DNA of 56,177 nucleotides, filler included, from Sluysia triapertura (Eukaryota), in assembly GCA_046118255.1 (NCBI GenBank). It is 4 parts of 4 records of this genome, joined end to end, with 100 filler letters (N's around TTAATTAATTAA, not from the genome) between each part and the next. Parts side by side here need not be neighbours in the genome. Positions count along the whole stretch, not along the records: positions 1 to 11,681 come from JBJNIA010180362.1; 3 more parts are not named here. One strand, written 5' to 3'. The translations under genes were made by a program, and so were the position numbers. Of this stretch, positions 666-52,300 are shown piece by piece. The notes beneath the pieces are model-generated. The model was not told where the DNA came from, made no database searches, and saw only the letters and a list, made by a program, of their open reading frames with translations. The number at the start of each line of letters is the position of its first letter. Positions within the stretch are counted from its first letter, which is position 1.

Positions 666-1059
666 GTGATCCGAACAATTGATAAATTAATAGATATAAT
701 CCTTTAAAGAGAAATCCAAGTGAGACCGTTGAAATCCTTTTAGCGGAAATCCAAAATAACATTTAACAGTATGTATAGTATAATGTGTAAAGTGTGAATA
801 ACGTAGCTTTATAAATACTTATTTGAATGACCTTGAACCATAAGAATTGTTTAATTTATAATTTTATTTCGTATAATAATGGTATTATTAATAATATGCA
901 AGCATTTTATTTTATTTATTTTTTAAAATTAAAAGCATAAAATATCTAAAATTTATTTAAAAGTACAAAATATTAAATTTCTAAAATTACTATTGATTAT
1001 ATTTATTTTTAGAATACGTATTAATAATTACATTTTAATTGAAATGCGAATAGAATTAC

Positions 1060-1500
1060 ATTTTAACTAATTATACATACCGACATATCGACATATATAT
1101 AACAACATTTTATTAGATTATTTAATGTTATCAAATGATTGAAATGATAATTAAAATTGAAAATGGACTTAAGGTCCTTACGGTTATTAGGTTGGAAAGT
1201 ATTTACGGGAAAAAACTTTATTACGATATCATAAAAATCTGTTACAATCAAATTACGAAACTTTATTAAAATTTTAACAAGAATCTTCATTAATAAATAA
1301 ATAAGATAACTAGATTTCGCAAATACTGATAAAACATGTGTTGGATATAAAAGATCATAAAAGGTCTTACATTTTGAAAATTGGGTGAAACTCGAAATTC
1401 GATCAGTGAAAAAAACTTCCGATGCATGAGAATTTTGAATTTTCAGTCTATATCTGTAGGGATTGCGCATATATGTGAACTCGAGCATAAAGCATTTGAA
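1060..1500 (+). repeat. Alpha family copy with GGAC-TTAAG-GTCC hairpin; 141-aa ORF on the opposite strand
   Basis: Hairpin at 1165-1177. The antisense ORF 1063-1488 aligns with the ORFs at 15647, 26219 and 51277 (YLL..VTDF..DLKS..LIKCC vs YLL..STNL..GLKP..LINCC). Confidence 0.7.
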
Positions 1501-1559
1501 TATAAACTTCTAGAATGAATTTCTCTTTAACATCACCATAGTGCGTTGGGGCAACATTA

Positions 1560-3310: not shown

Positions 3311-4181
3311 TAATGACGAATAAGCTTCATTATGACTTATTTGTAAACGATTCTTTTACCTGAAAATGTAAAGATAAAAAAATAAAAATTAACAAAAATA
3401 AAATATTATAGATCAATAATCCTGTATATAATTGATATTATTAAATAAAAAATATCAATAAATGAAAAATAAGAAAACGTCAAATAGAAATGATTTCAGT
3501 ATATTGATAATTTCTATAATGAAATTACATCTAAATACAATGTCAATAATTTAAAGTTAACTCTTAAATTTATAATCCTGGCCAGTTTTGCAGTATTATT
3601 GACAAATGGGAAATGTGTAGCAGACGATAACTTTGACTTAACTCTAAGATTTATATTTTATTTTTCAATTATAGTTATACTTTCTCACTCCATTTATCTA
3701 AAATACAAAAAGCCCTACCCAAAAGGTCAGTTAGTTAAGGCGTTTAATTAAGGAATTTATGTCAGCAAAATATTGTGCCATTATAGGATTTAATGTTGAT
3801 CGATTCGAGACCACATTCTGTCGGTACTAAACATCAAGTTTATTTAAGACCCTTAGAAGCATGTGTTGATAAAATGAATAATTTTACAATGCCTTTAAAG
3901 CCAGTGAAACTACATGCTCCTGCTCAACGTTATGTAGAAGAATTAAAGAACACATTGACATGTGCTAAATTAGAAAGATTAAGACCTTGCTTTATGTAAT
4001 TTGTTACCATCAAAAGTTATTCCGATGTCAAATATTATTGTTAATAGCATGGAAGTAATTATCGATTTCATTACACTTTCGACTCGTTCAAAAATAAAAA
4101 ATGAATAATGAAATAAATCGATAAATAAAAAATAACATCAGTTTTTTTAATAATATTTTTTCGATTGTAATTTTAAATAAT

Positions 4182-4349
4182 TATTTAATATGTAATAATA
4201 AAGATGTAATAATTCACGATGGTAAGATTTATCATAAAAATTGCTTTCACTGTACAAAACGAAAAACATTTTTATCAGTAACTACCTTTAATCTTTATAA
4301 TGACAGTCCTTTTTGTAAAATACATTTAATGGTGATTATATTGAAGTGA
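4182..4349 (+). pseudogene. Degenerate LIM zinc-finger domain
   Basis: Translates YLICNNKDVIIHDGKIYHKNCFHCTKRKTFLSVTTFNLYNDSPFCKIH. This is the LIM pattern with the first Cys changed to Tyr and CxxC changed to CxxR. Confidence 0.7.
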
Positions 4350-5374
4350 ATGTTGAAACCAAGTATGGTAAATGTCTTATATCACCTGTGGCTTACCAAT
4401 CACTTATTGCACTGATTTATTTGCACTATAATGAGCGTATTATTCAGAGAACAATAATAGGACTTGACTGGAACCCAGAATCTTCTCGATAAGCACCCAG
4501 TTGGTCTATCGCTTAGTTATCATTAGGTTGATAACGTACTCTTATTGAGCTTTTTATTTTACAAAAGCTTGCAACTACAGAGAAATAGTTGTAGTTAGTA
4601 TATGTAGAATATCAATAAGATTTCAGTGATATTGGAGAGGATCCGACTCAACTATCTCTTTTGAAATAAAGTCCTGTTAACACGTTCCAGATGGGCTCGA
4701 TTCTTATTTTTAGGACTTTTATTGCTATTTCTTAAACCATTGCTGAATGGTTCTAATATTTGTTTTTCCCTGTAAATGCTTTATTAATGTTTCTCGTATT
4801 TTCTGATGCATTGCTAATGATAATTTGATGAACTTGTTAAAAAATTGATGAAAATAATTAATTTTAATTATAATTTAAAATTTAAATAATAAAATTTTAA
4901 ACTGTTTTATTACTTTTATTCACTTTAAGTATTAAATATTTTAAATATTAAAAATAGGTTTCATTCTAATATTTATTTTTATTTGGTTGTAAAAATTCTT
5001 TATTTTAAATTATTATTAAGTTATAACTTTATTAGAATTCCGGGAACATTTAATTTTCATAAATTATAAATTGGAACGTTTTATGATTACTCTCTATATC
5101 AAGGAGGTTGGTGTAGAATTCGACTGCGATAGAGATGGAAGTGCAAAATGAATTTAAAAAGCTCTATTTCTATACTCAAAAATAAATTAAACTCTTAACA
5201 CGCTAAGATTTATTTAATAAACATACAACAATTTGGATATATAAGTAGGTTGTAAACAAACATGTAATTATTATTATTTTATTTAAAGATTTGGCTAATT
5301 TAATTAATTTAAATTTAGTTTAGGTATATTATTTGCTGAAAATTTTCAAATGTTAGTTTTTAAACTATTAAATA

Positions 5375-5700
5375 TTAGGCCTACCAGAAAGTTCTGTCCG
5401 ATATCAACATATATGAGCATATTAATCTGAGACATATAGTTATCTGTCTTTTTCACTACATGTATGCGCACCTGAACTTGTAAATTAACTATAACGTAGA
5501 TGGCTTATGTTAGTATTAAGTGTGACTCATTTGTGTAAACATGGGTACTGATAAACAAAATCTAATCCTTCATGGACCGGATGATAACTGGGAATGAGAA
5601 GTGGATTACCAATAAAAACATAGTAAAAAAGGAGTGTACTGTGAACCCGGATAACCTGGCCCCTCCAACCCTAAACCGAGCTAGAATCTGCACAAGAGAA
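5375..5700 (+). mobile_element. Mariner (Tc1/mariner) 5' relic with internal deletion
   Basis: TA followed by TIR-like TTAGGCCTACCAGAAAGTTCTGTCCGA; ATG at 5541; FMDRMITGNEKWIT from 5569 matches the mariner ITGDEKW motif with the catalytic D changed to N. No right TIR found. Confidence 0.8.
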
Positions 5701-6694
5701 TATCATAATAATCTTGCTTATTACTTTTATTTTTAGTTACTTTATTAATTTAAGTATCATTATTAATGGTACTGTAATGCATTTTTATTCGTTTTTTTAA
5801 ATTTTTTGGAATATGTTTGTTATATTTTATAATTCAAATTATTGCAAACATTAACTCGAAAAATATATTAAATTTGAATTAGAATGTAATTAGCCTCTGA
5901 TATTGCAAGATTTATTCAAAATTATTCAAAGTCTTAATTATCTGAAGACCTAAAAGTAACTGAACACTCGAACACCAAGGAATAACCAAAATTTAGATTA
6001 AGGATACATTTATCCTTTTACAAACTTTTAGTTTAAAAGAAAAAAATCACTCTATTTACAAACCAAGTTGTAATCAAGATATGTTCAAATTTTTCTATAG
6101 ATATCCAAACTTTGAACCAGTACTCTCCTTAGAACGCATTATTTTTGTACATATTTTTAGTATATTACATCACAAGCTACAAATTCTTACGATTTAATCC
6201 GTTCCATTTACTTACACAGACCTTTGTAATTTTATTTATTAAATTACATTTCTTTTCCTTTATTCAAATAAACATAATTTACTATTATCATTCTTCTCCA
6301 CTTATCCAAATAAATTTACTCTTTATCAAAATTTATCAAAATCTACTTCTTAGCAATTCATAAAGTAAAATTAAAAAAAATAAATTATAAAAATATTGAT
6401 TTTTTAAATCAAATTGATGTGATAAAGTTTGGTCTACTACGGGAAATGTTGGCTCTGTTGTAAAAAAAATTTCAATTAATGAATCAACAACAAATATACC
6501 TTTAAATTATCAAACAGAAATAATTGTAGTGTCACACCTGCACACATCATTTTATTGTTAAATCCACAAATACAATTCACTTCAAATTTTTTCATGAACA
6601 TTTCATTCACCCTGTAACATCATCATATCTCGCACAACTTATAAATTCATTCGACAAGATTATTAACACACAAGTTTTATTATTTATAGATTAA

Positions 6695-6932
6695 CCCTTT
6701 CAGCCCCGAATTTTTTTTCCTTAAGATATATGGTGATTTATTGTCTTTATAGATGATTTTTGCACAAATATGGCGGCGCTCTGATGCTACGTAATTACGT
6801 TCAAGGTAATCTTTATATCTGGAGGAAGCTAAAATTATGCTCTTCGTATTACTTTAGTAGGATCTTGTATAGCAGTTGTGTAAGAGAAAAAATCGCCATT
6901 GACACCATATGGCGGTCCCGGGGCTGAAAGGG
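6695..6932. mobile_element. piggyBac-type MITE
   Basis: Perfect 14-bp TIRs CCCTTTCAGCCCCG / CGGGGCTGAAAGGG flanked by TTAA on both sides (6691-6694, 6933-6936). Confidence 0.92.
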
Positions 6933-8485
6933 TTAAAGAGATTTAAATCAGTTTCTTAGCACATAAATTCGCTTGGTTACGATTTGGTGTTAAGTGACGA
7001 ATTAAAATTGTATAATAGTGAGAAAGAAAGATGGAGAAGATCTAGATAAGTTAAATTCACTTAACAAAGAAATGATCGAAAATAGATCTATGTACGATAT
7101 ATACTTACGTATGAACAAAATTCTACCTGGTGAAACTAAAATTTTCATACTAAGAATATTTTCACGAATACATTACTTTTTACTTAATGGTTCACAATGA
7201 TGTTAGTATCCTTACGAAAGTTTAAAGTGACAAATGAGACTTTCAAATTCAATACAATCCACTCGTTAAATTTTATGACGTCAACATCAATGTACTTTTC
7301 TAATGCATCGAATACAATTGTAAAACATTCAATAACATACAAATATATCCCATTATAAAAATGGTACTGTTGAGTAGATGTAAGGGTTATAACTTATGGT
7401 AAACGAGTAAAGTAAGTATTATTGAGACAATAAAATAAAAATTATGGTGAGTTATGTTCATTAACTCATGTACAAAATATTTGAATTAAAATAAAAGGAA
7501 AATTTATGAAGAAAGAACTCTCTATAAGACCTTAATCGTTAAAATATAAAAGTGCATTTTAATTAATTTAGTTAAAATTGTTTAACGTAATAATTTCGCG
7601 AAAAATGTCCGCATGCTAAAGTAACATTAGAATTTCAACAGTATTTCTACTGCTGAAATGTTACGAAGCACGTCGACGTAGATAACGTAAAAATTATTTA
7701 CTTTAATTAATTTTTATAATTTAAAATCAAATTCATATACGCAATACTTAAGTATAATCAAAGTATATATTAAATTTATGCTCACTAAGATACCAATTCA
7801 GTTACTGAATATTGAGGTCGAGGTGTTACGTACGGTTAACGTATAGTATAAAAACTTTTATAGAAAAGAAATTTGGCATTTAATTAATTTTGTTATTTTA
7901 AGTTGATTTATTATTTGAAGCGTAAATATACGTGTTATAATAATAGTGAATTTTGATTTTGTTACGTTAATAGAATAAGAGAATTGTTCGTCATTATCTT
8001 TGGGTAATTAAGGGAGATAATAAATTTGAATTCGACGGAAATTATCGTCGAAGTTTAATTATTAAAATTGGTCGGATTGTAATCGACTCAAAAGAATGAA
8101 TAATTTTACGAAATTATTATTTCAATTTTCCAATTTTAATCTCCATAGCAATTACCAAACGATTTTCCTTAAAATTAAAACAAATAAGATATCTAGACAA
8201 GTCAGAAGAAAAAGAATAAAACTTCACTTCAAATAAGAGAGCTACTTCAACACATTTGTGATAGCATTGTGCTTGAAGATAAATCTTTAGCAATTGACAG
8301 CCTTATAAACAGTATTACTATCATTGCGGTTAGTGATTCACGTTCTTGTTATTTTATTTTGTTTAATACGGATCTCAACTTTAGTGTTGAAATGTTAGAT
8401 GTAATATGATATTTTCTAAGAAATACGTTATTTATAATTATAAAAGATTCGTTTACGATTGTTGTCAGTAATAAAACATCTTTAA

Positions 8486-8778
8486 CCCCTTCCCTGTTTA
8501 TTCCTTATATTTGTGGGGTAACTAAAACTGACCAGAGCATAAAATCCCGTATACATACAGACCAAAGTGTAATCTTCATAATATTTATAAAACGACGTCG
8601 GAAATATCTTTATACACTACTTTTATTATTATTTAATATTACTTTGTACGTTTTATTACCATGTTTGTCTAGTTTTATTTGTTTTTCTATTCGGAAAAAG
8701 TATTTTGCCTTCGCATTTTCACTAAAAAATAGCCAGTTTTCGACTATTCACTTGAAAAATAAATAAACAAGGTGGGGG
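8486..8778. mobile_element. piggyBac-type MITE (second, older family)
   Basis: TTAA on both sides; imperfect TIRs CCCCTTCCCTGTTTATT vs reverse complement CCCCCACCTTGTTTATT (14/17). Confidence 0.8.
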
Positions 8779-11014
8779 TTAATGCACTAACATTGGTTAA
8801 ATAAAATTTAATTAAATTATCGGTATTGTAAACGAAATGTGGTGGTTCGACACTACTGTTCAAAATATTGTTATAACACAAAAATTAATTCCCATTCAAT
8901 AATATAAACACCTAACTGTTCTCATAAAACAATAAAATAAACTTAAAAATAAATAAAAGAAATTATAACAATAAAATTTCTATTGTAACATTCTATCTTA
9001 ATTGTCTTCCTAATGCACTCTTTCACTTATTGTTCGACAATATATAGATAATTCTGCATTTCTTTATCCATGTCAACGTAGTTAGTGTGTGAGCCTACGC
9101 TTTACAACCACAGTCACAACTAAGTCATGTTTTTCAAAAAAGTCAACAAAATTGTAGTCTGTGGTTTTTCTAACACTTAACCTACGGCAAAATAATTTTT
9201 AGCAGGGTTCGGTTACAGTAAGCGTCTTACAACGTATCGTTGGCACACCTGTAACTAATAAGTTAAAGATCACTTAAAAATAATGTCGCTATTAAATAAA
9301 TTAACTTAGGATGGTCTTCAACTACTAAATAAACTCAATAATTTACTAATTAATTAACACAAAAATCAAATTATTTTATTAGAAAAATATAAACTTAAAG
9401 ATAATAGGTTATAAAGATAAAACTAAATAAATATTATTAAAGATTAAAGTTCCGAGAGCGTTTAATCTAATTCTAATAAAAATTTAAGTTGAGTTTACTC
9501 CTCAATATATCGGGGACTCAAAAAACTTTATAAATTAATAGATAATTCGCGTGTATTTTAAGATTTTAACTTCGAAAGTTGAAATCCAACCTAACAAATA
9601 CATAAGTTACCAGATTCCTAATTCGATTTCCAAATTCCAAAATTGTCACGATTAATTCGAAGACATTAAAATCCAATAAAGTATTGTAAATGGCGACTGA
9701 TAAATATGATAACTAACAAATATGGCGACTATTAACTATAGCGATTTTCATTGTATGATGCCAATTTATATACTAGTCATCATCCAATGAAAATCGATGG
9801 AATGTTCTATAATATTCTAGAACATTCTAGAAGCTTCTAATCTATTTTTAGAAGCTTATTTTCTATTTGCGAAATTTTATTTTCTTTTTTGGAAAATAAA
9901 CGTTTTTTGATTAATTTTAATTGATTTTATAATAATTTTAAATGATTGTTTCGTGATTTTAATTAATTTTAAGGTGCTATTATGTTTTAGAGCTATTTTG
10001 TAGGGTTGTGATGGGAACCTAACATATGAAATACGTTAGAATATAATTAATAATAATAATAACAATAATGGTAATGGAACTACTTCGTCATTCTTGCAGG
10101 TATGAAAGAAATTATTCGAAAAAACTATTCTCAGTAATCTTCTTTAATTTATTTTAGTTTCTGTATTAATCTCATTGATAACTCTATCGCAATTCCATAA
10201 TGAACTTCAAATTGTTCATCGAAATCATTGGGTAGTAATAATGGATTTCTTTCACAGTTTATATATTAATTTGAAATTTAGTATGGCATGGCAGTCAATG
10301 ATATGAGTGCCCATTTCATCTACTGATCTTGATCAAAAATTATTTTACAAATATTTTAAGTAAATATTTTATAATTTGAAATGAACAACCAATTGTTATC
10401 AATAATTAAATTTCCAATAAATTATAAAATTCAAATAAATCTTACCGTGTTAAGTGTTTTGTGTATAGAGAATTATAAAATTTAATAAATTTTGCATTTG
10501 TACCTTCAGAAACTTTCATAATATTATGGATAGTGTTTTATTCGAAATAAAGATACTTAACACATAATAAAATATAAAACATTCGCATAATTTAAAATAA
10601 TATTTTTATTTTTATTTTACATAGTATTATATGAAATTCATTGTAAATCTGTGGGATCATCAGCAATTTGTTTTTAAAAATATTAATTATTCATTTAACA
10701 TATTTCTTTCAGAGAATAAATGTTGTATATTTTGTGATTCTCAAACTATGTAAAGTAAAATATTTAAATGTGAATAAAATTTACAATCTTTGTAACTAAC
10801 CAATGAGCTGTCAGTCCACTCTGACAATTTATTTTTAGTAAATTATTGACATTTTTTGGCTTTAAAAATATTTTAGTACTATAAATATTATCCTAATTAG
10901 TCAAAATTTATACATTTCTTTCTGTTTTATAATTAAGTTTGATGTATTTTATTTAAGACGGTTAAAATAAATTAATTAAAATAATATTAATTTTAAAATT
11001 AAAGTATATAATTC

Positions 11015-12080
11015 ATTGTGGGCAAGCAACTTTACCTAATTTTTATTATAAAATATTGATCCAAATAAAATATTGATTTTAATCGGGTTCACCTATAGTT
11101 GATTATTTATAACCTTACTGGTGGATATTAAACATAATATAACAACTAAATTTTCGCGATTGTGAGTGTCTCTGACCACATTAAGATCTATAACTTTAAA
11201 AGAAAGTAATGTTAAATAATTAATTTAGACCATTGCAACAAAAAATTAATGCAAGTTTATATCACTAATAACAAAAAAATTCAAGTACTCGAATGTATAT
11301 TTTTGATGCAATAACCGCACATAGTAAAAGAATTAACAACTATGATTTGTATAAATGTGCTAATAATAATGATAGAATTGTAAATATTAAAACTTAAAAG
11401 TTTTAGACAACAATTAAACAACATTAATGAAATTGGAAAAATAAATTTTAATTATTTTTAATTAATTTTGGTTGATTGTAAATTAATTAAAAAGTACAAA
11501 ACTCTAAACTTTTTCAATTAATAAAATAGATTAAATTAAAGAGATAAAAAGAATCTAAAACTTTAAACTTTTCAATTAATAAAACAAATTATTCTAAATT
11601 AAAAAGATAAAAAGAGTCTAAAACTTTAAACTAAACAGATAAAAAATCTAAAAATTTAATTTTTAATAAAGATAAAATTAANNNNNNNNNNNNNNNNNNN
11701 NNNNNNNNNNNNNNNNNNNNNNNNNTTAATTAATTAANNNNNNNNNNNNNNNNNNNNNNNNNNNNNNNNNNNNNNNNNNNNATCAACCATCATTTAATCT
11801 TAAATAATTTACTTAAATTACTTCTCACATTAAAATAAGTATTGCTGGATTTTTATTAACATCTGAGCGAACCTAACTTATCCATCAAATTATTTTAAAT
11901 TCTAGGTTCACCTATAGTAAAAGACTTAAAACTTAGAGAAGGCTTTCCTACAGGATTTTATTAAACAAATATATTAATGATTTTTTTATATTAAATTAGT
12001 TAATTGAAAGTATTTATTTATTTTTGCTACAAAGTTTATTCTTTAAAGTTATTATTTTGTCACGATAATGTGAAACGTTA
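11015..12080 (+). repeat. Pair of diverged direct copies (about 11015-11200 and 11860-12080), probably alpha-related
   Basis: Shared 14-mer GGTTCACCTATAGT at 11086-11099 and 11905-11918 with colinear flanks (ACCTAA..ATCCA.. upstream, TATTAAACA..AATAT downstream). Confidence 0.65.
11682..11781. other. Scaffolding gap with artificial TTAATTAATTAA linker
   Basis: N44-TTAATTAATTAA-N44 (100 nt); identical construct at 26587-26686 and 45294-45393. Confidence 0.97.
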
Positions 12081-13709
12081 AAGTTATCAAATCTTAATGT
12101 ACACTTGAGATTTACTAAAAGAATCTTTTACTAATTCAAATGATAATTTGCTTTTTCTTTACTGTTATTTTATATATAATATTTACGAAGTTCAAATAAC
12201 CAAAATGAAAATACTAAATATCCTAATTAATATTTTTACAACAAAATGGGGGTAATATATAAAAATATGGCCAAAACAAAATTATATAATAATCAAACAA
12301 GTTTAAATAAATATTAAAAATATTTATAAAGTATAGTTTAATCGTGATTATGAAAGTATCTTTATGTCAGGCTAAAGTTTATAAAAGTTTATAATTACAC
12401 ACAATTAGATATAAAACAATTAGATGTAATTTGATTAATTTGTATTCTAAAAATATAATTTTAAACATTATGTTTAAATAAATCAATGTCATAAAGGGCA
12501 GCTAGCGAAAAATCTCTAATTTGGGACAAATCTTTAGCATCTTTTAAGTGATCCTCTATCCAAATATTATCGTTACAAGTTGAGGTTTGTTCTCAAACTA
12601 ATTCGCTTCCTATTATATGAATTTTTATTTTAAAATTATATCTTCTCATTTACAATTTTTAAAAATCGCTAAACTTCACTATTTCCTTGTTTTTTTAGTG
12701 ACAATGCAACAATATACTAATAATAATGATTTATTTGTAACTTTCAAATATTAAAATTACTAGTTTTGAATTGATTATATTATAAATTGTATTTTTACTT
12801 TTTTAAATTATATATTTTTCAAATATTATTAATTTAGAATTAAATATTTTACAAATTATGCACATTAAAAATTTTTAATAGTAAACTAACAAATAAATTG
12901 TTGCTTTTAGATCTATTAATCTGCAATTTTACACTTTACTGTTTTAATGCATATAAAATCATGAATCCGACCTTAGTTTTTTAGAATTTAGGCTATTTAG
13001 CCTACTTTATTATGGAAAACGTTAAAGGCCTTTATTCTCAAAGAAAAAATTTCATAAGCATTTAATATTCATTTCCAAATTCTCTTTCATGACAATCATC
13101 TCATTTTATTATTCTAAGTATGAAAAATTTAGGATTTAATATTTTGAGAATTAATTTAAATTTGATGGCTCAAAATAAGGTTTTCTTTATGTTAGATTTG
13201 TGTGTTTTAATATAAGTGTAAGTTTAAATTTTATGACTATTGTTTACTAACACTTATTACGATAAATTGGAGATGGAAGTTTAAACTTATTTGATTACTG
13301 TTAAAAAATTCGCGTCTTTTTCTTTTAACTAAAGTAAATGAAGCAAACTGAATTAACCAATAAATACTTTATTTATAAAATGTTATTAGCAAATACAAAG
13401 TTCGAATAATGAAATAATTACTTTGATTTTATAAAATTCTTTATGTAAAATTTTATCACATTTAATGTTATTCTGATTCAAAGTAAGAATATTTTTCAAA
13501 ATGAATCGTTTTATATTAACTTAATATATGAATATATATTGAACTTGAATAAACTGTGATTATATCTAATTCAGCCATCTATCTATACTCACGTTTTTCA
13601 TAGTGGTGATGATTTTTAGTTTTTTAATACAATGAAATTGCTTTTTTAATATTATTTTATTCATGTTATAGGTTGTTATTATTTAAAAGTATTTTCAAAA
13701 TTAAGTTAC

Positions 13710-13788
13710 ATTATATTTCCATAACAAAGTATTATATTTCCATAACAAAGTATTATATTTCCATAACAAAGTATTATATTTCCATAAC
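13710..13788. repeat. 21-bp tandem repeat, about 3.8 copies
   Basis: Unit ATTATATTTCCATAACAAAGT, exact copies. Confidence 0.95.
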
Positions 13789-14763
13789 GATGCATAAATA
13801 AATTAAATTTGAATTTTATTGTTTAATTCTATTCATTATTTTTCAGTTATTAAAATAATTGTATATAATGAATAATTTCTTTTGTTGTAATAATTTCATT
13901 AAACATTCTTTTGTATTAATTAAAATAAATCTGTTACTGCATTAATGGATTTATTTACATTTGAATTAATGATTTTACTATTTGTTTTCATTTAAATTTT
14001 AATTAAAACAATTATATTTACATAATTCTATTAAAATAATTTTTACATTTACACTTTTAAATTCTTATTAATTTAGTTACACTTAGTGGAACCACATCTT
14101 TATTGAAAGATCTTACTGAAACAAACTCATAGGCAGTCACAACTTTATCATAGTATTCTTCATTCAATCATTATGTATAAGATTTTAAATAATCTATTTT
14201 AGACTTAGTCCTACTTTGTGATTAAGAGTTTAATTAAGGTTCTAAATTTGGTTGGAGCTTCAAAAGATATTCAGAAGATTCTAGATGTTTTCACCTCATC
14301 ACAATCACTCCCTTTTCTACCTACCTATTCTAATTATTAATGTCTCAAATTTGTTTTTGCTATTAGTAGTAATTTTAAATGTTTTTTTCAATATTTTTCA
14401 AAACATTTTAAATGTATTCTTAAGTGCCCAAATGATGTTTTCATCTTCATTAATCTGTCTTTAATAATGTTTTATTGTGTATCTGTCCATTTCCGTGTCT
14501 ACTCTACCTATTCCAATATTAGGAGTACATGGATATGAGAGTAACTTTCATAAATAAAATTAATAAATTTTTTACAATTACAATAATTAAATTTGAAAGT
14601 TATCTTTATAAAATTTGTGAGTGTTTCATTTTTATTAAATTTTTACTTTTGAAATTTAAAACCAAGTATTACATTTATATTCGACTATTTAAATTAGAAT
14701 CTTAATTCTTAAGGAAGCAAATATGTAATTCAATGTTACACATGATTTTATTTTATAATTTAG

Positions 14764-15102
14764 CTTGTAAACGATTTGGTTCTTAACAACGATCTTGAAC
14801 ACTTATTATGTAAAGCTGAAAGTCTTTATCTTCAGTTGGAACAAATTTGGCCTCAAGTTCCGCAAGATATGAAATTAATTTTAGACTTCAGAAACTGTTC
14901 AAATAGTAAAAGTAATAAATATTGCCCAGTTTCTCCCACTGTTATATCTTCATCACCTGATAATGCAACATTACCAATAGAAAACATTACCAAAACGAAT
15001 CAGAGTTACACAGAATCTTCACACACTTCTTCTGTCAAACAATCTTTAAATGAATATGGTTCCATGGGTTTTGTGGTCCCTGATAATTTTTCATCAAATT
15101 GA
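14764..15102 (+). CDS. TBC1D15: Terminal exon of a TBC1D15/TBC1D17-like Rab GAP
   Basis: TTTAG acceptor, phase 0. LVNDLVLNNDLEHLLCKAESLYLQL matches HINELSMKIDVEDILCKAEAISLQM; Ser-rich tail, TGA stop, AATAAA just downstream. Upstream exons not found. Confidence 0.8.
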   Translation, partial: LVNDLVLNNDLEHLLCKAESLYLQLEQIWPQVPQDMKLILDFRNCSNSKSNKYCPVSPTVISSSPDNATLPIENITKTNQSYTESSHTSSVKQSLNEYGSMGFVVPDNFSSN

Positions 15103-15749
15103 ATGGAAAGAAAAATGATAAATAATAAATAATCGACACCTCAACTTCTTCACTTATTTATTGTTTAAACAGTATGAAATTGAATCAATTTCATTTATAA
15201 ATTTACATGTTTTAAATTTACAGTTATTTCATTATTTTATTAAATTATTTTATTATTACTTATACGTAGATTTCTTTGAAATATCTTTTATTTTTCTTTA
15301 ATAATATTAGAACCACTTAGCAAATCGAACTAATTTATTTCAAGATTTATGTAATTTATAAACATGAACTCAAATAAAATTTAGAATTGCAATGTGGTGA
15401 TAGTAACTTCAGTGTACTAAGTCTGAATTACCTTTTTTAGATTGATTGTATTTTAATTATAACTAAATTTTGATATTTGATTATGACAGTGTACAATTTA
15501 ATTGAGCGTTGATTTTACTACTAAAAAATTTTATTGATTTGAAATTAAAATAAAGCTTTAAAAGTTTTAATCTTTGGATTTTAAAATAATTGATCTTACC
15601 AATAAAGTTTTGTTGAAACCAACGATTTGTTTAATGTTTAATACATTTGAAATCAAATAATACTGATCATTCACTTAATACATTTAATGAAGCAATGGAA
15701 TTATTAAATAGAAATTGTTCGATTGAAATTTATCAAAAACTCATTTTAG

Positions 15750-16110
15750 CTGAGTACTATTTCCAATTAGTTCATCTTTATTCAAATACTTCTTTGAAGG
15801 AAAACAGTGTAAAGTATTTCGAAATTGGACTTACAGTTTGTACTCATACTACACATTTGTTATATTATCGTGTTATGTTTTACAGCAAAATAACAAATTT
15901 TGTTAATTCATTAAATTTAGTAACTTTGTTAATTTTTTTAATTGTTGCAGGCCTTAAGCCCATTTTGTTAAATATAGTACAAACACGTTTAAGTCGTTTT
16001 CGTTTAGTTGAAGTTTATTTAGTTAAAATAATGTATGATAAAAATCCAGAAACAATAAAAATAGCCTTAATTTTTATAAATTAAAATATTTTTTGCCATC
16101 CACACACATT
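15750..16110 (-). repeat. Alpha family copy overlapping the 145-aa plus-strand ORF 15647-16084
   Basis: 15860-16110 aligns with 51950-52190 (TTTTTAATTGTTxCxGGCCTTAAGCCC; GCCATCCACAC vs GCCCTCCACAC). The ORF N-terminus looks TPR/helical-repeat-like. Confidence 0.8.
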
Positions 16111-18096
16111 ATAAAATACATAATAAGATAAGTGATAGGTTATGTACCGTTTATGTTTCAAAAAAATACGTTTCAGAAATATTTAAGATAAATTTCTTTC
16201 TAATTAGAAATATCATATTAATATAAAATAGATATAAATATTAATAATAATAATAATTATTATTATTATAAATGAATAAATAAATATAAAATAACAACTT
16301 AAACATAACTTTTTTCAAAAAAAAAATTTTATAACATCATGTTGATACTATTCTTATCATTATTTATAATTTAAAATGACACGATAATATTTCTTATTAA
16401 ATTTTAATAACATTCAAAATTATAGCTGTAAGGCATTTAAGTAGTTTATAACTGTTTCAGGAAATTAAAATTGAAAAACAATCAAAGATTTTTACACCAA
16501 ATAAATGAAGTAATATATACACTATGTACTATGCACATTTTTATATAAACAAATGCTTTACATTTTATTCTGCTTTTATAATTGTTATAGTTATAATTAT
16601 TTACCATATTATTATGAATATTAATATATAACTCACAATTTATTAAGCATTATTTATTCATTCTTAAATTTTGATAGCTTCATTAATTATTTTCATAATC
16701 AACTGGGAATTATTATTTTAACTTAATATCGAAAATTGCTGTGCATTTTTTTTTGTTTTATTGTATTTATCTTAAAAACAAATCATATTTCATTAGTTTC
16801 ATGAATTAAAAGTGGTAAAATTATTTTACAAGTTGTCCCAAATCTAAAGATAACATATTTTACATTTTTCTCGGTCACTATAGCTTTCAAATAACAGTTC
16901 ATAATGTCAATATGTGATGTTGTCATTTTGAATACGATAAATCAAATTTCGGCTTAATTTTAGTGGTCGTTATGATAAACATTGCCTGAAAGTGGTTCCA
17001 AAACCTTTCATCCACCCACACAATGTTTTCCTACTTTGTATTTACATCATATTAATTATTATATACTCAAATTACAAATTTTATATTTACGCAAAATAAT
17101 ATTAATTTTTACACTTATTATAAAGTTGTTTATTTTCTTTGTTATTTATTTTTACTGTTTTATTTTCTTGACTTTTATTAATTTGATGAATTATACATGA
17201 ATATTGCGCTATTTCTTTCATAACTTTGCTCTTTTGACTAACTAAATTAGCAATATATCGTGTAAATTTGACAATTTCTTACATTTTGGTGTTATATGGG
17301 TGTTATGAATTTTGTTTGTGATGAATGATGTTTTGAAGGAAATTTTGATATTGAATTTTGAAATTTAATATTTATCTTTAGAGTAGAAGTTGGATTTGAG
17401 GACGTATTATTAATTTTATTACGAATGATAATACTAAGTGATATCTTAAGAATTATGAATGTATATGACGAATTTATCGGATAACTCTTTAAACTAAAGC
17501 TTAGTATTTGATCGCTGGATATATTTGGAAAGTATAAAATACACTTAAAATACACTGGTATAAAATACACTATAAAGTATAAAGTACTTAGTACACATCA
17601 TATTCTAAAGATCAAATCAATAAACATCTTAAAATTAATCATTTATAAATAGTTAAATATTTTATTAATTCTCTAATATTATATTTTATTAATTCATTTT
17701 AATAGTCAAATATTTTAATCGGAAAATTATAATTTTTGTTTCGGAAAATTTAATAAAAATTTCAATCATCTTCCAGGTTAGAATTTTATTATTACTAAAT
17801 AAACAGATGGTCACATGCAGAAACTCAATGATGATTTAAGATGGTATCTGTTACAAAAATCAAATAACAAAACTGTCATTAAATAAAATAATAAATTAAG
17901 ATAAAATTTAATTTTTTACTAAGAGTGTAAGTATGTACCAAGCAATAAAATTAAAATTAAAACCACTTATGGTTTTTAATTTGATAAAAACAAAGTTTAG
18001 AACTGAAAATGAGTGTATGAATTAAAGTATATTTTTAGTATATTAATTTTCAAAAAATTAATACCATCTTAACAAAAATGACCTACAAGTGACATG

Positions 18097-18285
18097 TGTG
18101 GTGGTCAACCCAACACTTTAAGAATATTATTCCATTAAGACACAATAAAATCATCCTTCAGAATGTTCACAATTGTTATTATCATCAAACATTTTAAACG
18201 TAAAATTTCACAACAGCAAAATCTTATACATCGGAAATCATCAATCATATACTTAAAAATCAAATTAAAACATTTTAAAATTAAT
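18097..18285 (+). repeat. Dispersed C/A-rich repeat starting TGTGGTGGYCAACC (short copy)
   Basis: Aligns with 46080-46275 (CATCAAACATTTTAAAC, TTCACAACAG, TCAAATTAAAACATTTTAAAA). Confidence 0.8.
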
Positions 18286-18644
18286 CCCCTGGGATCTATA
18301 TTTTATTGAATTATTTTGAGATTGATTTATAGTGAATTATAATTAATTGTTATAAACCATGATTTATATTGTTACATACTCTGTGATGCAGTCGGAATAT
18401 ATTGAGATTCAGACTCATTTAATTGTGTTGCGTAATTGTCGTTAACTTAAAAATTTAAACTCACAACACTCAACATAAAATAGATCCTAATAAGTAACCA
18501 TCTCTTAACTTTCACAATAACTGAATCGAATTTCCTGTTTTCTTAGCAATTATCTAAGCACCATATAAAGAACCACATTTTACTGTCATTTAACACAAAT
18601 CACAAATAATGTAATAAATAATAAACTGTTGCAATGCCTTTAAA

Positions 18645-18775
18645 TAATGATAGTGTAATTGACTATAATAAAACAAAATTGTTAGACGGGGCTGATAATA
18701 CAGTGGATAGAGCATTGAACTGTTCAACGAGGTGCCGGGTTCGATTCCGTTTAGTCCATTTTATGAAGTCTAACA
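18645..18775 (+). repeat. tRNA-derived repeat / pseudo-tRNA (Asn-like) within an inverted-repeat-flanked module
   Basis: 18689-18758: acceptor-like GGGCTGA/TTAGTCC, A-box-like CAGTGGATAGAGC, B-box GGTTCGATTCC, CTGTT loop; D and anticodon stems are broken. Related copies at 18909-18995, 23373-23485, 24020-24077 and possibly 4460-4520 (-). Confidence 0.7.
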
Positions 18776-19812
18776 TTTGGTGAGCTCACATATCGAATAC
18801 CCTTATGATGTGGAATTAGATGATTTACAAGATGGTTGAGGTCAAACCTAATTGAATTTTGTGGAGATTTGTTGGGATAAAGGCCTAAAGTGCCATTTAG
18901 AATAATACTAGTGTAATTGACTATAATAAAACAAAATTGTTCAGTGATCAGAGCATCCAACTGAGCAGCGACAGGGCCCGATTAGTCCATTTTATATTTC
19001 ATTTCATATTTAAATATTCGTATTATTAATAAAGATGCAATTATGGCAAATGTGCACCATAATAGCAGAAAATTGATATCAATGTGTAATCCTGACACTT
19101 GACATTACACCGTCATTTATTCAGATTGATGCCGCATTTCCTTCACGGTCGGCAGGTTGGCTTCTTCTGTCAATAATCGGAAAATGGAGGAACTTCATAT
19201 TTGACTCCTAAATTAGCGAGACTGGCATCATCTCGAATAAAAATGGAATTTATAACTCACATTAATTATTTAGCATTGCTGAAATAATGCTATCCTTGTT
19301 TCTTTCTACTTTAACAGAAAATACATCTATCTGAATAGAGATTGGTTGATTTCCCATTTTCGAAAAACCAATGTTTGATTAAAATCACAAAACATTGAGT
19401 TGACAAAAGATTTATTTTTACAATAAATGTGTCAAACTTGCAATATTGAATTGTTTAATATTTCCAAAAAAAGTTTATTCACGTGACATTCTAAAAATAG
19501 AAATAAATTTTTTTCGGTCATAAATGATTTTGTTTTGCTGATTCTGGAACAATTACAAATAACAAATAGAATATTTTAAATGTCGTCTAATAAACCATCT
19601 ATTTTAATATTTTAAGTCAAGATTTTACGTTATTGATACTAATACTTTAAAGGGTCAAATTTAGTATAAATTTAAACTACTTTCTAATATCAGTAGCAAA
19701 AATTTATTTAAATATATAATACGTTATTACAGACATTTTAAAATTACTAAAATAGAGATTTTTTTGGAAATATTAAGCATTTAATATTATGTTACATGTT
19801 TGTCTGTTATTT

Positions 19813-19878
19813 TTATAAATCACCGAGTTGAACTAATTTATGAAAATCTGACGCCAACTCAGCATCCCAAAATATGGC
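19813..19878 (-). CDS. LRP2BP: LRP2-binding protein, terminal exon
   Basis: TTCAG acceptor; AIFWDAELASDFHKLVQLGDL* corresponds to [21 protein letters not shown]; phase 0 matches the previous donor. Confidence 0.8.
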   Translation of the reverse strand, partial: AIFWDAELASDFHKLVQLGDL

Positions 19879-19954
19879 CTGAATTGTAAAATTAAATCAA
19901 TAATAATAATGATAATAATAATTCTAGTAATGTTATAAAAGCAGATCAACTAAC

Positions 19955-20126
19955 TCGTTTGAAAAATATAATACTGATTTTCTGATTACATTTAACTCCA
20001 AGACCACGTTGGAGACAGAGACCATAGATAAAGCAAGCTATTGCAATGCCTTTGTAGACGTATTCTTTGATAACAGTGGTACTTCGTGGCATAGCACTTA
20101 AATCTTTTTCTTCTATAATACCAACT
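19955..20126 (-). CDS. LRP2BP: LRP2-binding protein exon (SEL1-like repeats)
   Basis: [28 protein letters not shown] matches [20 protein letters not shown]; 172 nt, phase consistent. Confidence 0.9.
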
Positions 20127-20649
20127 CTGACAATGATAATTTGAACAATTTTAAAAATTACATTTTACTGATTATTGTAAATAGTAAATTACATTTATTG
20201 AATAAAAGAAGAAATATCAGCGATGCAGTAATGATTGTATTTATCACATTAGCAACAACTTCTATTATTATTACAGTACACTGACTAGCAATACAGCAAC
20301 AACAACAACAACAACAACTAGTTGCCAACTTGCCAAATTAACAATTATCTACTGATAAATTTTAATAATATTATTTGTTATTTCACATTCAGCTTTTACA
20401 TTTCAAGTTAAACCTTTTCAAATCGAATATTTCCGTCGAATATTAGTTACTCTCCAGAAACAACTGCTGTGTAATAGTGGTGTATCCTTACTTTAAAATG
20501 ATCCCAATGACATTTTTCTCGCAAAATACAATAAATAACTCGTAAAAATAACAATCATTCACAATTCAATCCTCATACCTCTGGAACATGTTCAATGTGT
20601 CAACTTGCAGAGCAATAACTGATAATCAACTATCAAATAACAATTAAAC

Positions 20650-20902
20650 TCATCATCATCATCATTAACATCATCATCATTATCATCATCATCATTAACA
20701 TCATCATCATTAACATCATCATTACCATCATTATTATTATCATCATTATCATTATTATTATCATCATTATTATTATTATTATTATTATCATTATTATCAT
20801 CATCATCATCATTACCAGTATTATCATTAACATTATCAACAATATCATTATTATCATCATTATTACTATCATCATCATCATTATTATTATTATCACATTT
20901 AT
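20650..20902. repeat. (ATC/ATT)n microsatellite abutting gap 20903-21111
   Basis: Direct inspection; the poly-D/N and poly-M/I ORFs here are repeat artefacts. Confidence 0.9.
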
Positions 20903-22147
20903 NNNNNNNNNNNNNNNNNNNNNNNNNNNNNNNNNNNNNNNNNNNNNNNNNNNNNNNNNNNNNNNNNNNNNNNNNNNNNNNNNNNNNNNNNNNNNNNNNN
21001 NNNNNNNNNNNNNNNNNNNNNNNNNNNNNNNNNNNNNNNNNNNNNNNNNNNNNNNNNNNNNNNNNNNNNNNNNNNNNNNNNNNNNNNNNNNNNNNNNNNN
21101 NNNNNNNNNNNTTACCATTTTCGATCATAGTATAATAATAATAATAATATTAATATAATAACAACAACAATATCAACAATATTAACAATAATAATGATTG
21201 TAACATCAATAAGAACGCCTACAGTAAAACAGCCCCTCAAAATTCAATTACCCACAATTAAAGTTCATTAGACTACTTCACACTCTCAGCACCACTTCAT
21301 GTTTCACTGCGAGTTGTGATAAACTGAGCTGTCAAATTACACAGTTTTAATAATTTATAACTATAATTATATTTATTGCAAATATTATAATTACAATAAT
21401 TATTATTATTATTAATTTATTATTATTATCGCTATCGCTATTATTATTATCACTATTAATATTAATATTATTATTATTGTAAAAAATTAATTTATTATGG
21501 ATATGTGGTTATAAAATGTGTGTGTGATGAAATGAACTCTTAATCTCTGATAATAATCTGAACTTCTTTAATAATATTTTCACTTTAATATATATTTATG
21601 AAACTTTTTAGTTGTAAACATTCGAATACGCTCAAACGAACTATATATATATATATATAAGGTAATAGCTCTATCTTTATATACTTCAAATCAAGATTCA
21701 AATGCTAAATTTTTATTGACAAACTTTTCTAATTAGACACCACATCAATATATTGATTCTAATTTATCTGAAGATATGATTAATATTAAAGTAAACTTCT
21801 ATTAATTTCTTTTATAAATTATTTATATACTTTATCTTATCTGGACGTGTGAATTCAAATACTCGTCCCAACTATTCGGGATAGAAGTGTTAAATAATCG
21901 ATTCAATTAAACTATCGTTACTGTCGGATAGGCCTCTATAATCATTACTATCATTATTATCACCATTATTATTATCATCATTATCACGATTATTATTATC
22001 ACGATTGTTATTATCATTATCATTATTACTATGATCACTATTATTAACAATACTTGCATATTATCATAATTAACACTATTATTATCATTATTATTATCAT
22101 TATCATTATTAATATTATTACTATTATTGATATCGTTATTAACACTA

Positions 22148-22482
22148 TAATAAACTCTGTATTATCATTATTATTATTATTACTATGACGAGTCCATAAA
22201 ATACCTCGTCTAATAAACTCTGTATTATCATTATTATTATTATTACTATGACGAGTCCATAAAATACCTCGTCTAATAAACTCTATATTATCATTATTAT
22301 TATTATTATTAATATGATGAGTCCATAAAATATCTCGTCTAATAAACTCTATATTATCATTATTATTATTATTATTAATATGACGAGTCCATAAAATACC
22401 TCGTCTAATAAACTCTGTATTATCATTATTATTATTATTATTACTATGATGAGTCCATAAAATATCTCGTCTAATAAACTCT
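22148..22482. repeat. Minisatellite, 5 units of 63/63/66/66/66 nt
   Basis: Unit TAATAAACTCTRTATTATC(ATT)n..ATGAYGAGTCCATAAAATAYCTCGTC; sits just inside an LRP2BP intron. Confidence 0.95.
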
Positions 22483-22493
22483 AAATCACTAAC

Positions 22494-23010: not shown

Positions 23011-24520
23011 ATGCCATCCTAATAATTAATAATCGAATTCATCCAATAAATACGAAATTGATGAACAAAATGAAGACGTCCATCTGGTACATTAAATTTA
23101 TTCAAAATATTACTCAGAAATGTCATATCTTATTTGCCGATATCAGATAAAGCAGCTCTAAATGGTTCACTTATAAATGAAGTTGTTTTTTTTATAGTTT
23201 ATGACTCAGATTTATCATTTGTGCTTTCATTGTTTAAACTCTACTCGATGAATGTCATCTAAAACGTATCCTTTGTAGTTTATATTTGCTAACATAATAA
23301 TGGCTAAATAAATAAATACATACGAGTAACTTTTCTACTCACGTGTGATATCAAAATGTCTGGGTACAGGCTAATGATAGTGTAAATGACTATAATAAAA
23401 TAAAATTGTTAGACATGGTCAAAGCATCGAACTGCACAGCTCTGAAGCGAAATGTGCGGTCGGTCCCTTTGAGAAGTCTAACAATGGTCTTTATATATAA
23501 ATTCATGAAATCGCAAATGATAAATATCAATGATCATATATTCACTCTATTCCGTGCAATATCCCACTTAACTATTAATTCTCGTACCTTAGGGTTTCCT
23601 CTTCTTTTTTGTGGTGAACAATATTATGTTTCGTTCTTTTCCCCCTTTAATACATTAATAAAGTCCTTTGAATTTTCCAATACAACAGCAACCATGAATA
23701 TCTCTTCTTCTTTATGAATGTTTGTAAATCTTCCAATTTTTCCCTTTATGTAATGAATTGTTAAATTATTCAAATATTTCTCTCCTTTTTTCTATGAATG
23801 CTTGTGTATCTTTTGTTGAATATAACTGCGTGTGCTAATATACCTATAATAAAATAATACTTATAATACAATAGAATATGTACCTATTTCCATGAATGTA
23901 CCTCTTATATATTTTTCCTTTCCTATATAATTTAACTATGTTGCTCTTTATGAATGTATATAAATAATCTTGAACGCACTTCAGTCCTGGACCAAACATC
24001 CTTATTTACGTTCATCGAATTAAACAGCTGTTAAGCGAGAGGTGCCAGGTTCGATTCCCGGGATTGAAGCCTAACAAAAACACCATTTTCAAAACATCAA
24101 TCAAAAGATATTGATGCTCTTTTCAGTTCAATTTGTGATGATGAAGACAAAATGAAAATGTAACACACACCAAATGCCTAATTTATCAATGCTATTTTAA
24201 ATAAATTCAATATTTCAAATGTAATGAAACTAATATTATAGATGTCTCAAAGAATATCTGGACAGGAATTTTATAATTCGAGCCGAAATACCTGAACTTA
24301 CCATCTTGAGCGACTCGACGAATATTTACAATACATCATAATACATCATCCATACAAAAATATTTAAATATAACTGGACACTAAATTAGACATCTATTTC
24401 GATCATGCAGCGCACATTTTCTTAGTGATGCACAGAATGATAATTAAATGTTTATTTTATAATGATAATGATGATGATTGATCACCAACTTGTGTGTCCT
24501 CAGAAAAGTAAACCTAACTA

Positions 24521-26218: not shown

Positions 26219-26526
26219 ATGAACACATCTAGTTTTACAATTTTTGAAAATCCTACAAGTAACATGTTAATTGAATATCTGTCTATCGAACCTCAAATGG
26301 AGTCGTGTATTTGTATTTCTATTTCTATTTTCATAAGTCTTTTAATGATAAATAATCTTTTAATGTTTGATAACTTTTCGATACTTAATTTCGTACGGGA
26401 CCTTAAATCCCCAATATTTGGTGGCAAATTAATTCAAAGTAATAAGAATAATCAACTTTTAGAAGTAATTTCAGTATTTGTAAATTTTCTTAAATATGTT
26501 AATAAACTAAAATCAAAATTCCAAAA

Positions 26527-49132: not shown

Positions 49133-50330
49133 GTTGGTTTTATTTATTTATTGCTTTTTGAAATTTATAAAAGTTTAACCTTTTATTGTACATTGTTAAT
49201 TTTTAACTTTATACGATTTATATATTTGTGTGTTATTTTATTTTTGAGGCTCTTGACGAGACCCGTTCTTGGAGGAAAGATAAAAGTGAAATTTAAAACG
49301 TATAAGAAATATTTCTTGACAAAAAGCTTCTCAAATCGTTAGATAAATGATACGAAATAGGTGAGATTATTGATAAACATACCAAAGCTACAATGTACAG
49401 TTTAATTTTAAAACGATATTTTAAAATTTTTATCAAGTAACGAGAATAGATTGAAGCAATATTTCGATTAGTTAATGTTATTGTAATTAAATTCGTTAAA
49501 TTTATTTGATGGAAGTTTTTTAAATAAATTTTATCAAAATCTTTTAGATCATTGTAAAATGAATGTAATTTATATTTATTAATTACAATTATACGATCTT
49601 TAAAATATAAGTTGTAAGATTTGAAATCAAAATAATTCTTATTTAATATCAAACAATAAGGATAATATATAAGGCATTTATTAATATGTAATTTAAGGCC
49701 GAGAATAAATAAAAGGTTTAAAACATAAATAAAATTCAACTAAAAACGAATAGTAAATAAAATCAAAATTTCGTATTTGACATAAACTCAATGAATCTTC
49801 ATTTACAGTCATAAATAGCGATCATCAATGAATTCGATCGAATCCAGTCGAGGAATGAACACCCGATTGAAATGGTTCTAACAATTTGAAACAACGAATT
49901 TATGTGTATGAATTGATAAAAGATATTGAATATCGTGCATGTGTTTTGTTAACTTGTAGTGTTATTATAAAGAAATGATGCTTTAAAAGTTGTTGAGAAT
50001 TCAGAGATATGATCGTATTATAAATTGCAATAATTCTTGAGACGTATGTGAATTATGGATAAATAAATTTTTATGTTAACAACATTATTTAAGGTTGAAT
50101 TACAAAGTTTCAAATTAAGTATAATATTAATTAAGGAAATATTCTTATTAAAACGTTTACTAACATTAATCTGTCTTAATATTGAACGCATAAAAATTAA
50201 ATGATAAAATTTCCTTATTGTGTATTATTGATTACAGAAATAATTTTATTAATAAAATTCTTGGTACTTATAATAACAAGTTTTCATCTTTACGATAGAA
50301 AGACTTTTATTTCCTATCATTGTACAACAG
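49133..50330. repeat. Intronic cluster of alpha copies (about 49133-49340 minus, 49340-49900 plus, 49960-50330 plus)
   Basis: PVLGGKI vs PIFGGKL (26219 ORF); TTTAAGGCC at 49692; GAATCTTCATT and AATTCGATC shared with the 1060 copy; AAATGATGCT near 49973. Confidence 0.55.
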
Positions 50331-51104: not shown

Positions 51105-51276
51105 CATTCCTGAAATTATAAAATATACAAAAATTTATTAATTAAATAATATGTAAATGATTAAAAATAAAAATAATCAATTTTGTTATAGCAGTAATGA
51201 TTAGATGCTATTATTGATATGAAGGTCGTATATTACTAAATTCTCTATTAGTATAATATTCATTGTAGTATTTAAC

Positions 51277-52269
51277 ATGTTATTTGAGTTAGTACATTCA
51301 AAAATGATGGATTTGGTCATTATGTGGTCTATATTAATATTACTCACAAATTTCCATGAACGCCTTTTTGCTAATACAAAATGTAGAATGGACAATTTAC
51401 ACGAAATTGACTTTAGTATGAATACGTTTGAATTAACAATGTATTGTTATTTATTTTCAAATCCGTGCTATAGTGCAGTTCGTTTTCATGTTGCTGATAA
51501 TGGTATAAAATGTGGAAGCAATTATAGCAAAACAATTTATCCTGGATTAATGTTAACGTCTGGATTAGTACATTACGTTCTCGACATGTTATCAATATCA
51601 GTTCATATCAAAGAAGTCTACATGTTTATGAGACCCATTTTTAGTTCTTTTACTGTTTTGATGACAATTTTATTAACTAAAGAAATGTGGAATGATAATG
51701 CTGGTTATGTTGCTGCCTATCTCATAGCAATTGCTCCTGGTTATTTAAGTCGAAGTACATCTGGAAGTGATGACAATGAAAATGTAGCTATCTTTGCTCT
51801 GCTATTAACATTTTATTTATGGACTAAGACTTTTAAATCTGATCATGTATTTTGGGCAGTTTTGTGTTCATTGGGTTATGTTTACGTGGTATCTGCATGG
51901 TGTGATTATGTTTTATTTGAAATGGTTATTTCATTTCTATTTTTATTCTTATATTTATTATATTATTATGCGTATGTTTTGTTCTTTGTATCAACAAATC
52001 TTGTCAAATTAAAGTTATTCAATACTTGTTTGTTTTTAATTGTTTCGGGCCTTAAGCCCTTGTTTGTTAATTTAAAAATGAGGTTAATAAATTGTTGTTT
52101 GTTAAAAATAACTTTTAGTAAATTAAAAAATAAAATAAAAACGAAGTTTTTTAAGTTAAAAAATGTTTGGCCCTCCACACTTCAATCTAAAAGAATCGTT
52201 AGTAGAACTTCTCGACTTCGTTGTATTTTCGGATTCGGTAAAGTTGATAAGCACAACATTGCTCACTGA
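51277..52269 (+). pseudogene. STT3: Intronless, truncated, degenerate STT3 oligosaccharyltransferase copy
   Basis: TIYPGLMLTS..IAIAPGYLSRSTSGSDDNENVAIFALLLTFYLW..VSAWCDYV (about 51532-51912) is clearly STT3. GSYDNEG has become GSDDNEN and WGGY has become WCDY; the C-terminal WWDYG domain is absent. Confidence 0.85.
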
Positions 52270-52300
52270 TGGCACTTTAAAAAATGACGAATCACCATGT
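51915..52300 (-). repeat. Alpha family copy forming the 3' part of the STT3 ORF
   Basis: TGGCCCT, CGTTAGTAGAAC, AGCACAAC and CACCATGTT match the reverse complement of 55511-55625 in order; GGGC-CTTAA-GCCC at 52047-52059. Confidence 0.75.

Follow-up and report, generated by a model that had tools for sequence, protein, structure and literature searches.

A recurrent CTTAA hairpin core in candidate LTR-like repeats of Sluysia triapertura

Related elements

The repeats described here most closely resemble the solo LTRs of animal retrotransposons (Metaviridae, Bel/Pao), for which the accessible part of PMC3601003 gives a start motif TGTTRNR and an end motif YNYAACA. Judged against the same part of that source, the likeness lies in TG..CA ends, flanking repeats, a T-rich first half, AATAAA near the 3' end and, in one unit designated A1, a TGTTRNR start (PMC3601003). 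Unlike solo LTRs, the units have in common a GC-rich central hairpin while being otherwise unrelated, each is crossed by a stop-free frame that is in frame with a flank, and no parent element was seen.

A second point of comparison is provided by the minimal hammerhead ribozymes of Penelope-like elements (PLEs). As these are described in the available parts of PMC4209133 and PMC11167929, the motif shares with them, on its opposite strand, a 4-bp helix II and a 5-nt loop, and GAAAC follows one copy while a U3-A8 core precedes another (PMC4209133). Unlike these ribozymes, the motif has an incomplete core and a long open frame antisense to it, and no PLE protein was found. According to the portions consulted, PLEs are able to carry host genes (PMC3846280), and a PLE ORF can start at stem II on the ribozyme strand (PMC11167929).

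Finally, according to the accessible text of PMC5131818, 14 of 17 young LTR-mediated retrocopies have ORFs that are in frame, whereas older ones mostly carry stops. By comparison with that text, one of our loci is alike in joining an intronless partial host gene (STT3) to an LTR-like unit, apparently amplified, but differs in that neither a second LTR nor a primer site nor a purine tract was found, and, unlike older retrocopies, its STT3 piece is strongly diverged yet open (PMC5131818).

The window and its open frames

The window, by which we mean the whole 56,177-nt stretch that was analyzed, consists of four contigs joined by spacers, has a GC content of 25%, and derives from an intron-containing eukaryote; all statistics below rest on these 56 kb, and ORF denotes throughout a stop-free frame read from the sequence. 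A well-conserved beta-hexosaminidase (GH20) exon at 37351-37644 (minus strand), which matches two unnamed proteins at 73-75% and named animals, including schistosomes, at about 60%, points by its sequence to an animal as the source; that this animal is a flatworm would be no more than a guess. Stop-free frames of at least 100 codons number 26, versus 2-3 in Markov simulations, and many of them show neither a family match nor coding-type composition; an exact look-up of 10 window ORFs returned 0 of 10. Reading the window with alternative genetic codes gave 13-16 frames of 150+ codons, versus 9, under tables 4, 10, 15 and 25, and table 6 opened everything. An altered code was nevertheless dropped, because the GH20 exon has a normal reading and runs into an intron at its end.

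The hairpin core

The original prediction described five copies, one of them broken, of a CTTAA loop enclosed by a covarying GC-rich stem, and all five strings were confirmed at their positions and on their strands (Table 1). What it held about their structure stands in part. The stem is perfect and GC-rich at three sites, but at 26397 a C-A mismatch adjoins the loop (a U-G wobble on the minus strand), and 49692 (minus strand) is a half motif with no stem. One compensatory A-T versus G-C change is real. Recurrence exceeds chance in the window, with 15950 and 52047 being copies of one repeat.

TABLE 1. Positions of motif copies, open frames and candidate units along the window.
Feature	Position	Strand	Basis
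Hairpin core, 4-bp stem with A-T pair	1165..1177	-	string and stem check
Hairpin core, 3-bp stem, nt 92 of unit A1	15950..15960	+	string and stem check
Hairpin core with C-A mismatch	26397..26411	+	string check, pairing table
Half motif, stemless	49692..49700	-	string check
Hairpin core, 4-bp stem, nt 92 of unit A2; minus strand continues with GAAAC	52047..52059	+	string and stem check
148-codon open frame, no family match	1066..1509	-	frame scan, family search
Open frame of 149 codons, of which 74 TPR-like codons continue in frame into A1	15635..16081	+	
153-codon open frame, into microsatellite and contig end	26126..26584	+	frame scan
148-codon open frame, no family match	49296..49739	-	frame scan, family search
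Open frame of 348 codons, diverged N-terminal piece of STT3 lacking introns, in frame through A2	51223..52266	+	
Candidate unit, 250 bp, TG..CA, exact 5-bp direct repeat	1040..1289	-	
Unit A1, 247 bp, TGTTA start, ACA end, putatively solo-LTR-like	15858..16104	+	
Left copy of exact 6-bp direct repeat flanking A1	15852..15857	+	
Right copy of 6-bp direct repeat flanking A1	16105..16110	+	
Unit of 162 bp with 5-bp direct repeat, weak candidate	26312..26473	+	
TG..CA unit of 227 bp, exact 5-bp direct repeat (or else 49510-49883, with a repeat of 6 bp)	49564..49790	-	
Unit A2, 224 bp, homologue of A1, TA start, ACA end, no direct repeat	51956..52179	+	

CTTAA alone is not enriched in the window (218 seen versus 231 expected), and a Watson-Crick stem with at least 3 G-C pairs surrounds it at 3 of the 218 sites, namely 1165, 15950 and 52047. 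The pattern GGNCCTTAARNCC occurs three times exactly (0.00 expected) and four times when at most one mismatch is allowed (0.16 expected), counts that are flattered because the patterns were taken from the sites themselves. In a check not drawn from the sites, this loop was common to 3 of 9 GC-rich pentaloop hairpins; among 60 Markov simulations, the most frequent loop of a run was seen once (55 runs) or twice (5 runs). Because two of the three same-loop hairpins are homologous, these amount to two independent events plus 26397. A copy of GACCTTAAT at 7528, omitted from the original prediction, lies outside any ORF.

Folding at the motif sites was no better than in shuffles (z-scores -1.1 to +1.4), Rfam and ARAGORN gave no relevant RNA or tRNA match, and the motif's DNA patterns had 0 matches in viral and prokaryote collections. 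A literature search, with most subscription papers outside its scope, returned no account of the motif or of an amplified STT3 piece.

Reading phase and codon choice

The motif had been said to lie always in the same phase of a 100+ codon ORF, and this held: among 30 CCTTAA sites, the five motif copies have in-phase open runs of 148-348 codons, and the other 25 reach at most 57. GRCCTTAAR occurs five times versus 0.95 expected, with 5 of 5 copies in one phase of the 148-348-codon frames, and five of the nine longest open frames in the 56 kb carry the motif in that phase. GRCCTTAA, with 5 of 6 copies, ranked top of 79,593 motif-by-phase tests, the runner-up having 3. By comparison, only 11 of 43 GC-rich hairpins in general fall in such long frames. 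Codon choice follows the same direction, since GRC CTT AAR encodes 5 of the 7 [GD]LK tripeptides that occur among the 26 frames with 100+ codons, versus at most 3 in 20,000 synonymous redraws. The compensatory stem change alters amino acids (G/D, P/S), and thus the constraint would act on nucleotides.

The further proposal that the motif is a dual-coded signal is partly borne out, as a description, by the non-random phase and synonymous codon choice, but the frames around the motif are without coding-type composition and folding stays at shuffle level. GC content by codon position is flat in 4 of the 5 motif-bearing segments, and the frames look unconstrained in amino acids. Chance also retains a place in these figures, because the loop contains TAA and so bars one of three phases, the window is rich in long frames, and the motif was picked from a very large scan.

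Candidate LTR-like units around the core

Tracing the ends of homology between the sequences around 15950 and 52047 led to the unit A1, which has a TG start, a CA end and an exact 6-bp repeat on either side; its homology to A2 stops at the same points as the unit itself. The 15950 and 52047 segments are 78% identical over 83 bases (E 5e-9; z 12), and in both units the motif lies at nt 92 and 51 nt separate AATAAA from the end. With two ends fixed, chance alone gave a 6-bp repeat no more than 6 nt away in 0.13% of 1,500 trials. The start of A1 matches TGTTRNR, as this motif is given in the accessible part of PMC3601003, and its 3' end deviates from YNYAACA at 2 of 7 places. One frame of A1 stays open up to 20 nt before the unit's end. 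A2 has no TGG after the unit and no purine tract before it, and a profile search built from the two copies found no third.

The same anatomy, TG..CA plus an exact 5-6-bp direct repeat, positioned 85-120 nt before the loop and 125-160 nt after it, is present at 3 of 5 motif sites (A1, 1040-1289 and 49564-49790), with A2 having no repeat and the unit at 26397 being weak. In this narrow range it was found at 6 of 209 other CTTAA sites, 86 of 5,000 random places and 34 of 1,916 GC-matched controls; in a wider range the figures were again 3 of 5 motif sites, versus 19 of 209 other CTTAA sites, 347 of 5,000 random places and 159 of 1,916 GC-matched controls, a background of 2-8% overall. Since A1 and A2 were used to define the distance range, tests are confined to 1165 and 49692, which makes 2 of 3 non-family sites. 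The kind of unit seen at 26312..26473 occurs at about a third of random places. AATAAA, which is common in AT-rich DNA, lies 75 and 17 nt from the end in 1040-1289 and 49564-49790, respectively.

Depth of coverage was taken from X1, a run that contains window sequence, may be the source sample and is hence not independent. Both motif sites covered in X1, 49692 and 52047, fall in deep, repeat-like zones: depth is 638-1,219 over 49507-49827, and it drops from 4,008 to 263 in the bin after the A2 end, so that a zone edge matches the end of the unit; these depths were counted at 80% likeness, at which unrelated T-rich contigs may be drawn in. At 49718, two X1 contigs have about 34 more bases, and the window copy therefore likely carries a deletion just upstream of the 49692 motif.

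From these observations we conclude that the recurrent feature is real and most likely belongs to undescribed LTR-like repeats. More specifically, and tentatively, we propose that the hairpin forms a conserved core in the interior of solo-LTR-like insertions that have one open frame apiece. Integrase-type insertion would have generated the 5-6-bp flanking repeats, recombination between paired LTRs would have reduced the elements to single units, and the GC-rich core may have been a cis element of the parent element, in a promoter or RNA-end region, overlapped by one of the parent's reading frames. Stops per frame in the five units are 16/6/1, 11/6/0, 15/10/1, 2/7/9 and 0/8/8, with 0-2 in one frame of each unit and 6-16 in the other two; one stop-free frame kept per unit, on the AATAAA strand, would explain the shared phase of the motif. 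Beyond the core, A1 and A2 are the only homologous pair (z 8.3, versus -1.7 to 1.5 for other unit pairs), which would make the units different families that share 9-13 bases. No parent element with paired LTRs, primer site, purine tract or gag-pol was seen beside the units, and no match to gag, RT or integrase was found in the frames scanned. If this proposal is true, the window would contain an undescribed LTR-like group with a shared core, which would help to annotate the genome and would be ordinary in kind.

Several observations weigh against solo LTRs. First, on one flank of every unit, 60-240 additional codons stay open in frame with it, a regularity that solo LTRs as known do not predict, and in-frame fusion at 5 of 5 sites by random insertion is unlikely. 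Second, the ESM Atlas calls for the frames, TPR-like for A1 and STT3-like for A2, suit host coding DNA better. The A1 frame part is called TPR-like at 0.91, and the frame at 15635..16081 matches TPR_8 at E 5.8e-5, under the curated cut-off; a single-sequence fold of it was uninformative (pLDDT 49.5). The empty-site test favors insertion in the case of A1, beyond which the TPR-like frame stays open over 38 codons in the phase predicted, compared with 6 and 0 in the other two phases; the same test failed at 1165 and 26397, with 4 open codons each, and was not significant for STT3.

Rickettsia palindromic elements, which are bacterial and contain a long palindrome, are short structured repeats that lie in frame inside unrelated ORFs. 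The units share this short structured repeat in frame inside unrelated ORFs, although in Rickettsia the host frame continues past the insert, which is true here for A2 only. It is conceivable, if improbable, that short mobile units of animals, as a eukaryotic counterpart to such palindromic inserts, preserve both a stop-free frame and a dual-coded hairpin and survive in frame within pieces of host genes, building chimeric frames (STT3, TPR) that are selected for openness and not for amino-acid sequence. Were the in-frame link to hold genome-wide, it would imply selection on frame openness in mobile units and a route to chimeric genes.

Alternative explanations

The alternative that survives best, which we nonetheless consider unlikely, derives the motif from codon usage and chance. 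The plus strand at 51277-52269 holds an intronless N-terminal piece of STT3, strongly diverged and with its conserved motifs changed, yet stop-free. GLKP in this piece would be a decayed form of the STT3 sequence GFQP, with Gly and Pro codons supplying the GG..CC arms and Leu-Lys the CTTAAG palindrome; 15950 would copy the segment, and the other sites would be coincidences from a very large scan. GFxP stands 94 residues after GSxDNE in 18 of 19 motif-bearing STT3 references and GLKP stands at 95, BLASTP aligns GLKP to GFQP with one gap, and the ESM Atlas leads to STT3 at 0.84. With the A2 unit kept, the STT3 alignment scores better for 26 of 26 references, a gain equalled by 12 of 200 shuffles; leaving the unit out was not significant, 42 of 200 shuffles being as good. 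The plentiful long frames, 26 of 100+ codons versus 2-3 simulated, and folding z-scores within the range of shuffles also fit such an origin. However, the tail alone is not STT3-like (E 0.38; 93 of 500 shuffles), the low share of GC-rich hairpins that fall in long frames speaks against it, and 1165, 26397, 49692, the GC-ending synonymous codons and the TG..CA units are left uncovered. Searches for homologues of the tail gave none (0 of 96 candidates), and the STT3 piece itself had no homologue at 1e-20 and none in viral contigs.

X1 depth over 51326-52181 is 3,597-21,623, versus 12-22 for single contigs nearby, which suggests that the STT3 piece is heavily amplified. Among its best-supported differences from other copies of the piece, 14 of 15 change an amino acid and none falls at a third position. 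In our analysis a retrocopy origin may cover the in-frame STT3 piece but not its strong divergence. A diverged piece of a CCA-adding enzyme at 52955-53618 (minus strand) adjoins the STT3 piece.

We regard it as quite unlikely that the motif, on its reverse strand, represents a decayed helix II with its UUAAG loop, derived from minimal hammerheads of PLE ends and no longer able to cleave. The stem, loop and GAAAC are all present in complete minimal hammerheads at 11 metagenome loci, and on the strand opposite to the motif both stem mismatches become G-U, such that 18 of 20 cells pair, with helix II closed by G-C at 4 of 5 sites when G-U is allowed. At 52047 the minus strand reads stem, loop and GAAAC and gives the best model match in the window (22.3 bits, E 0.034), a score that is circular because the model was built from loci picked for the same loop. 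An exact UUGANAA core accompanies 1165, corresponding to the U3-A8 variant in the part of PMC4209133 consulted, and that paper's supplement lists a planarian PLE hammerhead with a 5-nt loop; the accessible texts of PMC6431247, PMC8557442 and bioRxiv 10.64898/2026.07.22.740005 contain no further flatworm case. Against this origin, the two core halves (CUGANGA or UUGANAA for one, GAAA for the other) occur together at no site, helix III is missing at all of them, and Rfam gives no hammerhead at E up to 5 or 10. The matches at 1165 and 15950 are at background (E 3.6 and 6.5), and 26397 and 49692 are outside the model's 25 matches, so that 1 of 5 sites is above background. A scan of 12 frames lying upstream of 4 sites matched 0 Pfam families, and thus neither RT nor GIY-YIG, although decayed relics could escape it. 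Decayed hammerheads would also predict copies mostly outside ORFs and do not predict TG..CA ends. Positions 52160-52340 may resemble a GIY-YIG end, a likeness that no search confirmed. Separately, locus L007 (31-454) carries minimal hammerheads, tandem and inverted at 183-base spacing, in a retrozyme-like arrangement.

Very improbable, in our judgment, is a stand-alone dual-coded signal in unrelated host mRNAs, such as a recoding or protein-binding hairpin. The phase and codon statistics would suit it, as would a compensatory change that alters amino acids, but the flat codon-position GC, the weak folding and the location of sites in repeats do not. Moreover, a frameshift would yield no product of note, since downstream the other open phase closes within 6-16 codons and the remaining phase is itself a stop; the frameshift site was rejected on these grounds. 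The original prediction had also offered a recombination or nicking site with a TTAA core; despite the near-palindrome around TTAA, such a site, or a transposon end of this kind, is scarcely credible, as TTAA forms no boundary, the homology shared by 15950 and 52047 extends past it in both directions, X1 contigs cross TTAA at 49692 and 52047, the arms are 3-4 bp, the flanks are not mutual inverted repeats, and the element boundaries were found 90-150 bases off.

Other candidates and dispersed repeats

Other candidates were rejected as well. The end of a TTAA-targeting DNA transposon was dismissed for showing no element boundary or flank exchange at TTAA. A mimic of the tRNA-Leu anticodon arm (YUUAAGG loop, other strand) has no tRNA body, and the window's tRNA-like repeats are without the motif. 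Splice sites or branch points were set aside on inspection, phases and dinucleotides varying among the sites. The region 1066-1956 may resemble a hAT transposase, a likeness confirmed by no search.

The window also holds repeats of other kinds. Dispersed tRNA-like repeats with a B-box-like motif lie at 18685-18750, 18903-18985, 23372-23460 and about 24000-24070, and are probably a SINE family. At 22148-22483, a tandem array of 63-66-bp units (5.2 copies, minus strand open) adjoins a Sel1-repeat piece. A second dispersed family, starting TGTGGTGG, is found at 18097-18285, 46080-46275, 46375-46614 and 54662-55131, its copies being 70-89% identical.
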